NCBI GenBank assembly: GCA_037379345.1
Contig: CM074514.1
Coordinates: forward strand, 42,470,001-42,534,000
Origin: Perna viridis
Lineage: Eukaryota
DNA length: 64,000 nucleotides
Direction: 5' to 3'
Positions 62,076 through 62,123 of this stretch are shown piece by piece. Within the stretch, counting starts at the first letter, position 1; each line of letters starts with the position of its first letter. The position numbers and the translations under genes were made by a program. Below the pieces are notes generated by a model. The model was not told the DNA's origin. It made no database searches and saw only the letters and a list, made by a program, of their open reading frames with translations.

Positions 62076-62123
62076 GAAGTGCACTCATTGATTTTACCGT
62101 TAATGCTCTCATTGAAGATGGAG
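62076..62123 (+). CDS. UNC5: Candidate UNC5 alternative 48-nt cassette exon between the two TSP1 repeats
   Basis: ccctaagttttcacatag acceptor, GAG|gtgagc donor, open in the required phase-1 frame (GSALIDFTVNALIEDG), surrounded by about 30 YCAY motifs. Confidence 0.62.

Follow-up and report, generated by a model that had tools for sequence, protein, structure and literature searches.

The intron between the two TSP1 exons of a UNC5 gene in Perna viridis contains a probable, unproven cassette exon. In its preferred form it occupies positions 62076-62123 of the window (the whole 64,000-nucleotide [nt] stretch of DNA analyzed here), and we put the probability that these 48 nt are a real, usually skipped exon of UNC5, whose inclusion is predicted, at roughly 0.45. 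That the donor at 62124 is used, with whichever acceptor, we consider likely.

A preliminary description of this DNA had taken the host gene to be UNC5, and this assignment was borne out: the Ig1 exon is 73-81% identical to seven UNC5 proteins (named Mytilus in five cases), and 17 exons join into a single open frame of 966 amino acids (aa) that runs from Ig1 to the death domain without an internal stop, has the architecture Ig-Ig-TSP1-TSP1-TM-ZU5-UPA-death and is collinear with Mytilus UNC5. The exons on either side of the candidate, and their neighbors, are as follows.

54827-55195, 56557-56660 and 58924-59110, forward strand: UNC5 Ig1 and Ig2 exons (tblastn, open spliced frame).
60598-60765, forward strand: first-TSP1 exon, upstream flank of the candidate (Pfam PF00090, E = 6.9e-13; spliced contigs).
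63078-63239, forward strand: second-TSP1 exon, downstream flank of the candidate (Pfam PF00090, E = 1.1e-4; spliced contigs).
63511-63579, forward strand: UNC5 juxtamembrane exon (in contigs of RNA runs X2, X3 and X8; joint 63237>63509, GT..AG).

Other parts of the gene and window merit brief record. The juxtamembrane exon at 63511-63579 is rich in Asn, Arg and Asp and differs from the Mytilus segment; the Mytilus juxtamembrane region has an additional optional segment of 18 aa. The transmembrane exon has a 27-nt extension through an alternative 5' splice site (42535438-42535464 of the window's contig), which encodes MLDGYSSGS, identical to a segment that is present or absent among Mytilus and unnamed mussel-like UNC5 isoforms; this extension is a putative splice choice that is better conserved than the 48-nt candidate. 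Some UNC5 isoforms of Haliotis and Patella have one TSP1 motif and their sister isoforms two, as if an entire TSP1 exon were skipped (compare human UNC5A isoform 1). Far upstream, an exon-like frame at 6279-6412 carries a PGAY/GPGPGAY repeat and, we presume, resembles the sperm-tail PG-rich repeat proteins.

The candidate itself consists of the following elements (a slash marks a splice site or exon junction).

62076-62123, forward strand: candidate 48-nt phase-1 cassette exon, adds GSALIDFTVNALIEDG (sequence; mini-exon ranking).
62056-62075, forward strand: weak 3' splice site ending in TAG, with a rival AAG at 62062-62064 and UGC at -22 and -40.
62121-62129, forward strand: 5' splice site GAG/GTGAGC (9.4 bits).
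62118-62123, forward strand: alternative 6-nt form ATGGAG, adds DG (internal AG 62116-62117, same donor).
61995-62047, forward strand: branch-point candidates CTGAC at 61997 and TTAAT at 62032 and 62043 (motif scan; use predicted).

The acceptor AG (62074-62075), the donor GT (62124-62125) and the internal AG that would leave ATGGAG are present as first described, and the 48 nt, which have no stop in phase 1, read CP-GSALIDFTVNALIEDG-VHGGW between the two TSP1 exons; 62076-62123 thus has canonical AG/GT borders, preserves the frame and is stop-free, the properties sought in a cassette exon. The donor, described as near-consensus, is strong by a locus-trained matrix, on which it beats 22 of 31 true donors; decoy donors that equal or better it occur at 0.34-0.6 per 2.3 kb. 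The acceptors are weak. Scored with pooled, leave-one-out matrices they reach -0.85 bits (48-nt form) and -0.44 bits (6-nt form), where 33 true acceptors span -0.2 to 9.7, and by the locus-trained matrix -3.3 and 1.3, respectively. These splice-site scores are rough because the matrices were trained on the small sets offered by two UNC5 copies. The CCTAAG proposed as a branch point did not survive inspection, since it matches neither CUAAY nor CURAY, stops 11 nt short of the acceptor and includes an AG of its own; the CTGAC and TTAAT sites listed above are better candidates.

Three AGs are crowded within 16 nt at the acceptor (62063, 62074 and 62078), which speaks for a reading in which the donor is paired with an acceptor that shifts the frame (AAG 62062-62064 for an exon of 59 nt, or AG 62078-62079 for one of 44 nt), giving a poison exon that would lower UNC5 output or truncate the ectodomain. 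The AAG at 62063 is also the first AG past the nearer branch candidates, but the acceptors in question score lower still (-1.65 pooled; -4.0 and -4.8 by the locus matrix), TAG is preferred to AAG when the two are closely spaced, and the inserts of related species (below) are all in frame; we regard this reading as very improbable. The same intron also has a frameshifting donor, CAG/GTAATT at 61844, that is stronger than the candidate's (10.5 bits); acceptors near it, in the region 61827-61849, give only frameshifting exons (17, 31 and 46 nt), and the site is either a decoy or a poison exon.

We compared the candidate with all other frame-preserving AG..GT mini-exons of the 2,312-nt intron (n = 54). 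By consensus count the 48-nt form ranks first and the 6-nt form second, and by the locus-trained matrix the 6-nt form ranks first and the 48-nt form second. No 18-nt DGSYNG-like exon (the Mytilus edulis insert; see below) was found among the 54 candidates elsewhere in the intron. The scan does detect exons, as it recovered a true exon absent from the initial model of the second UNC5 copy. Real DNA from the surrounding region contains 0.16-0.27 acceptor and donor pairs at least as good as the candidate's per 2.3 kb, and when the intron was dinucleotide-shuffled 150 times, such a pair turned up in 3 of the shuffles. The splice motifs taken alone are only modestly above chance, and the motif tests were chosen after the sequence was seen and are not independent of one another. 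This rate of chance pairs, and the fact that on the pooled model both acceptors score under all 33 true ones, are consistent with an unused pseudo-exon or decayed remnant, that is, a strong donor present by chance or as a relict, with weak acceptors and no meaningful splicing; we consider this somewhat unlikely, for reasons given below.

The content of the 48 nt points in more than one direction. The frame-1 coding score of 3.25-3.45 falls in the top 5% of 869 intron chunks free of stops and at the 40th percentile among 60 coding chunks; the final bases account for this score, and the initial 42 nt score -0.81. An internal repeat (12/14 matches, period 24; repeats occur likewise in 50 of 1,513 intron windows) suggests that the exon may have grown by duplication. 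No 5-residue piece of GSALIDFTVNALIEDG was found in 507 proteins, and with a GRAVY of +0.68 the peptide is more hydrophobic than each of the 13 inserts known from other species (-2.6 to +0.04); both observations fit a pseudo-exon. The peptide starts with GS and ends with DG, a likeness to DGSYNG of Mytilus that was read by eye and is weak. The hydrophobic peptide and the noncoding-like first 42 nt also fit an alternative in which the real exon is the 6-nt ATGGAG (DG); positions 62076-62117 would then be intron sequence that supplies its branch point and pyrimidines, and its inclusion is predicted to be neuronal and eMIC-dependent. We hold this to be unlikely, and return to it with the regulatory motifs.

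Two further attributes of the region were evaluated. The three CpGs reported around the exon do exist (62039, 62098 and 62130; 3 of the 11 in the intron), and the probability of three inside the exon ±50 nt is 0.029, but a free scan of the intron for three CpGs within 92 bp gave P = 0.44, and CpG clustering was rejected as a stand-alone signal. A repeat origin of the exon region was likewise rejected, the surrounding 200 bp having one genome match (in a search that ignores common words).

Contigs were examined from four (X1, X2, X3 and X8) of 17 runs taken to be RNA by their small share; the runs bear no tissue labels. Contigs of X2, X3 and X8 contain a direct join of the two TSP1 exons (loose ends 60765 and 63076), and run X1 gave unspliced pieces only. 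Because the direct join is found in three runs, the candidate exon is not constitutive; skipping is the common form in X2, X3 and X8. None of the inclusion junctions that the preliminary description had proposed to look for, and no contig over 62076-62123, was found among the pieces listed for the four runs, three of which have spliced cover; contigs drop rare variants, and this blank was not counted against the exon. The contigs also revealed two distinct exons upstream and, within the first TSP1 exon, five differences that they share; both observations trace to a second intact UNC5 copy. This copy lies in tandem, at 42626348-42651893 of the same contig, 108 kb downstream.

The first TSP1 exons of the two copies are identical at 163 of 168 positions (97%), so that junction counts must separate the copies. 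One ZU5-region exon is 93% identical between them and 13 other exons are 66-85% identical; exons at 97% and 93% beside diverged exons and an unaligned intron are likely to reflect exon-limited gene conversion. The paralog's equivalent intron does not align and contains no homologue of the candidate, short chance matches only. It does contain an unrelated 12-nt candidate with the donor AAG/GTGAGG, an indication that such matches are not rare and another point in favor of a pseudo-exon. A decayed remnant is harder to reconcile with the same comparison, as neutral sequence in the paralogous introns has decayed beyond alignment and a relict would be expected to have done so too. In the second copy, the introns on either side of the first TSP1 exon contain short in-frame AG..GT candidates at 42640219-42640230 (12 nt), 42637147-42637179 (33 nt) and 42637702-42637713 (12 nt), and the latter two outscore the 48-nt candidate by the locus matrix.

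Comparison with other protostomes gives the candidate its context. In eight species, database models include UNC5 isoforms both with and without an insert of 3-16 aa at the exact CP/V junction.

Mytilus edulis: insert DGSYNG, 4 with and 5 without; isoforms X1, X2, X4 and X7 (XP_071128843/844/846/850).
Crassostrea gigas: insert EKG, 1 with and 5 without among named proteins.
C. virginica: insert EKG, 1 with and 2 without.
Lingula: 16-aa insert, the candidate's length (XP_013412210), 2 with and 1 without.
Lineus: 3 with and 1 without.
Rhodnius: 4 with and 2 without.
Halyomorpha: 2 with and 1 without.
Tachypleus: 2 with and 2 without.

Single insert-bearing proteins come from Lycorma, Homalodisca, Uloborus, a second Tachypleus gene and two unnamed records, and the total is 13 inserts of 3-20 aa, none of them 2 aa long, which counts against the 6-nt form. 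A short in-frame insert at the TSP1-TSP1 junction thus recurs in protostome UNC5, where it is annotated as alternative; the closest named relative, Mytilus edulis, is among the species that have it. The inserts resemble the candidate in junction, phase, shortness and frame, and those of bivalves, like the candidate, end in Gly; they differ from it in length and sequence and in being less hydrophobic, and as database models they may represent either cassette exons or shifted splice sites. The candidate shares with these relatives the position of the junction, and the 3' end of its exon is similar to that of the bivalve inserts.

That 3' end corresponds to the following feature.

62115-62123, forward strand: last 9 exonic nt, matching 4 of the 5 informative positions common to the EKG and DGSYNG inserts.

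It is the intron's only such site, against a background of 70 of 3,004 G/GT sites (from the flanks) and 20 of 530 strong donors; the 9-nt pattern was back-inferred, post hoc, from the oyster and Mytilus peptides. At the one position that departs from the pattern, the base gives rise to the internal AG on which the 6-nt form depends, which may be taken as favoring that form.

The inserts are sparse within the molluscs, being found in 3 of 31 groups and 6 of 88 proteins. The 28 groups that lack them are what the pseudo-exon reading would lead one to expect, but isoform catalogues under-report such exons, as the C. gigas insert (in one of six named proteins) illustrates. Four other Mytilus species have no insert among the proteins listed (15 of 28 main-cluster members), and in the C. 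gigas cluster EKG is absent from all four unnamed contig-derived full-length proteins, a blank that, like that of the RNA contigs, was given no weight. An Ig1 search of representative proteins gave at least 150 matches, mostly fragments, the unnamed ones being left uncounted; 20 of the newly listed matches of at least 300 aa have two TSP1 motifs, seven of these with longer linkers (unnamed, uncounted). A metagenome scan for DNA of related molluscs found 11 loci, the best of them 73% identical and none a mussel intron. An Amphiura model whose linker measures 29 aa was left out for its low quality.

The flanks of the candidate contain two predicted regulatory sites.

62003-62030, forward strand: five YCAY motifs, predicted Nova-type site, the densest of the intron, 46-73 nt upstream of the exon.
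62279-62284, forward strand: the intron's only TGCATG, predicted Rbfox-type site, 156 nt past the donor.

YCAY is the Nova-type motif and UGCAUG the Rbfox-type motif; upstream YCAY clusters repress exon inclusion and downstream UGCAUG activates it. UNC5 introns totaling 42,038 bp contain 3 clusters of such YCAY density, flanks totaling 306,004 bp contain 6, and the background of TGCATG is 0.07-0.08 per 200 nt. A YCAY cluster and a UGCAUG in the flanking intron are, by motif, what a Nova/Rbfox-regulated exon has. An objection to a pseudo-exon is that the donor, the bivalve-like 3' end, the YCAY cluster, the sole UGCAUG and the retained CpGs converge on one site.

A UGC near the acceptor had further been read as the signature of SRRM3/4 (eMIC) neural microexons. 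The TGC at 62104 is there, and by motif the candidate has what eMIC targets have in this respect, a UGC (at -22 for the 48-nt form and -14 for the 6-nt form) before a weak acceptor, but the UGC fails as an eMIC mark: 17% of intronic (decoy) AGs have one within the 18 nt before them, as do 6 of the 33 true acceptors, an equal frequency that weighs against the 6-nt form as well. Microexons are defined as 3-27 nt long in the source consulted, a range that the 48-nt form exceeds and within which the 6-nt form falls. No CTAAY branch point is present in 61960-62125, and the AG-free zone is 9 nt for the 48-nt form and 36 nt for the 6-nt form (the 33 true acceptors have a median of 31); the candidate lacks the strong CUAAY branch point and the long AG exclusion zone of eMIC targets. 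The fly signature is reported to consist of a weak acceptor, UGC, a long AG-free zone, a UCUC tract and a CUAAY branch point (10.1101/2021.02.24.432780). In the candidate only the weak acceptor and the UGC of this set can be recognized. UGC is described as present in 74-79% of eMIC targets and not strictly required (10.1101/2024.09.17.613571). Overall, the candidate is like SRRM3/4 (eMIC) neural microexons in its weak 3' splice site, its UGC near the AG, its preserved frame and its location in a neuronal receptor gene, and it differs from them in that the 48-nt form is too long, there is no CUAAY and the AG-free zone is not long.

A direct genome search for the eMIC family gave no match. SRRM_C (PF15230) positions 3-56 and 53-67 match two adjacent exons on another contig (E = 5e-4 and 1e-4, each below the cut-off).

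C9:2083594-2086880 (3594-3743, then 6711 onward of the local piece): SRRM_C-matching exons, about 57 kb downstream of a cwf21 match.

These exons are likely to be the 3' end of Srrm234, of eMIC type, and would belong to the same gene as the cwf21 match. They lend some plausibility to the 6-nt form, as do its slightly better acceptor by either matrix, its UGC at -14, a CTCTC, a branch-like CTCAT at 62084 and the 36-nt AG-free zone. The absence of CUAAY, an AG-free zone near the constitutive median, and a competing upstream TAG with branch candidates of its own all argue the other way.

If 62076-62123 is indeed a usually skipped cassette exon, its origin and control may be outlined as follows. 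The donor and the last 9 nt would be inherited from a small exon of bivalves, 9 nt long in oysters and 18 nt long in Mytilus edulis, with a 5' boundary that has moved or been extended in the candidate. The weak acceptor and the upstream YCAY cluster, repressive in that position if bound by a Nova-type protein, would cause skipping by default, and a tissue-restricted or stage-restricted activator would permit inclusion: Rbfox at the downstream UGCAUG and perhaps eMIC at the UGCs. Inclusion would separate the two TSP1 domains by a spacer of 16 residues with predicted flexibility, and the spacer would lengthen and loosen the stalk, with a change in reach, cis/trans geometry or signaling and not in ligand affinity.

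We think a change in reach or flexibility more likely than one in affinity, and the tuning of ligand or co-receptor binding first proposed to be poorly placed, because the insert lies after all known binding surfaces. Netrin and heparan sulfate are reported to bind Ig1-Ig2, N-terminal to the insert position (10.1101/2022.09.03.506478), and GPC3 to contact Ig1, Ig2 and the first TSP1, again N-terminal to it (PMC9596381). The same source describes the TSP1-TSP2 linker of rat Unc5D as flexible in simulations (PMC9596381). In an AlphaFold model of the Lingula isoform with a natural 16-aa insert, pLDDT is below 50 at residues 309-322 (insert 310-325) with folded domains on either side; the model derives from a 57-row alignment, and its fold is that of the Lingula isoform, not of the candidate.

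Exon 8 of vertebrate UNC5B, which reportedly lies after the second TSP1, offers a parallel: it and the candidate are both short in-frame extracellular UNC5 cassettes (33 nt in UNC5B) with an upstream YCAY cluster. Skipping of exon 8 through NOVA2 on that cluster is reported to yield UNC5B-delta8, whose netrin binding and dimerization are described as unchanged and whose signaling differs (PMC8358048). It is nevertheless a different exon, endothelial and experimentally proven, whereas the candidate's Nova site is known from the motif alone. Human UNC5A isoform 1 is reported to have no first TSP1 domain and to be unable to bind GPC3 (PMC9596381). It and the candidate both vary the TSP1 region, but UNC5A loses a domain and the candidate adds a spacer, leaving the domains intact.

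A broader interpretation, which we advance tentatively and at less than even odds, is that the TSP1-TSP1 intron serves protostomes at large as a slot for a hinge exon that splicing can tune and that the candidate is a bivalve microexon grown in the 5' direction. Molluscs, brachiopods, nemerteans, chelicerates and insects would then keep or re-invent the exon, free in sequence and length (3-20 aa) and fixed in position and phase; this part, too, we hold to be possible rather than probable. Neuronal receptors are already known to have short optional exons and hotspots for such exons. In the openly accessible literature searched, we found no description of a UNC5 TSP1-linker exon and no study of the annotated protostome TSP1-TSP1 inserts.

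For Perna viridis alone, the finding would mean an unannotated optional exon in an axon-guidance receptor, if the exon is real, which is ordinary enough. The wider pattern is weightier, the same interdomain joint of UNC5 carrying optional spacers in many protostome lineages. If these are regulated, the joint would be a clean exon hotspot, conserved in position with its sequence turning over fast, and receptors with and without the spacer would provide a simple test of whether ectodomain length, and not binding surface, controls UNC5 signaling. If the hinge slot is true, splicing would set the length and flexibility of the ectodomain, and hence cis versus trans netrin-receptor signaling, by cell type.
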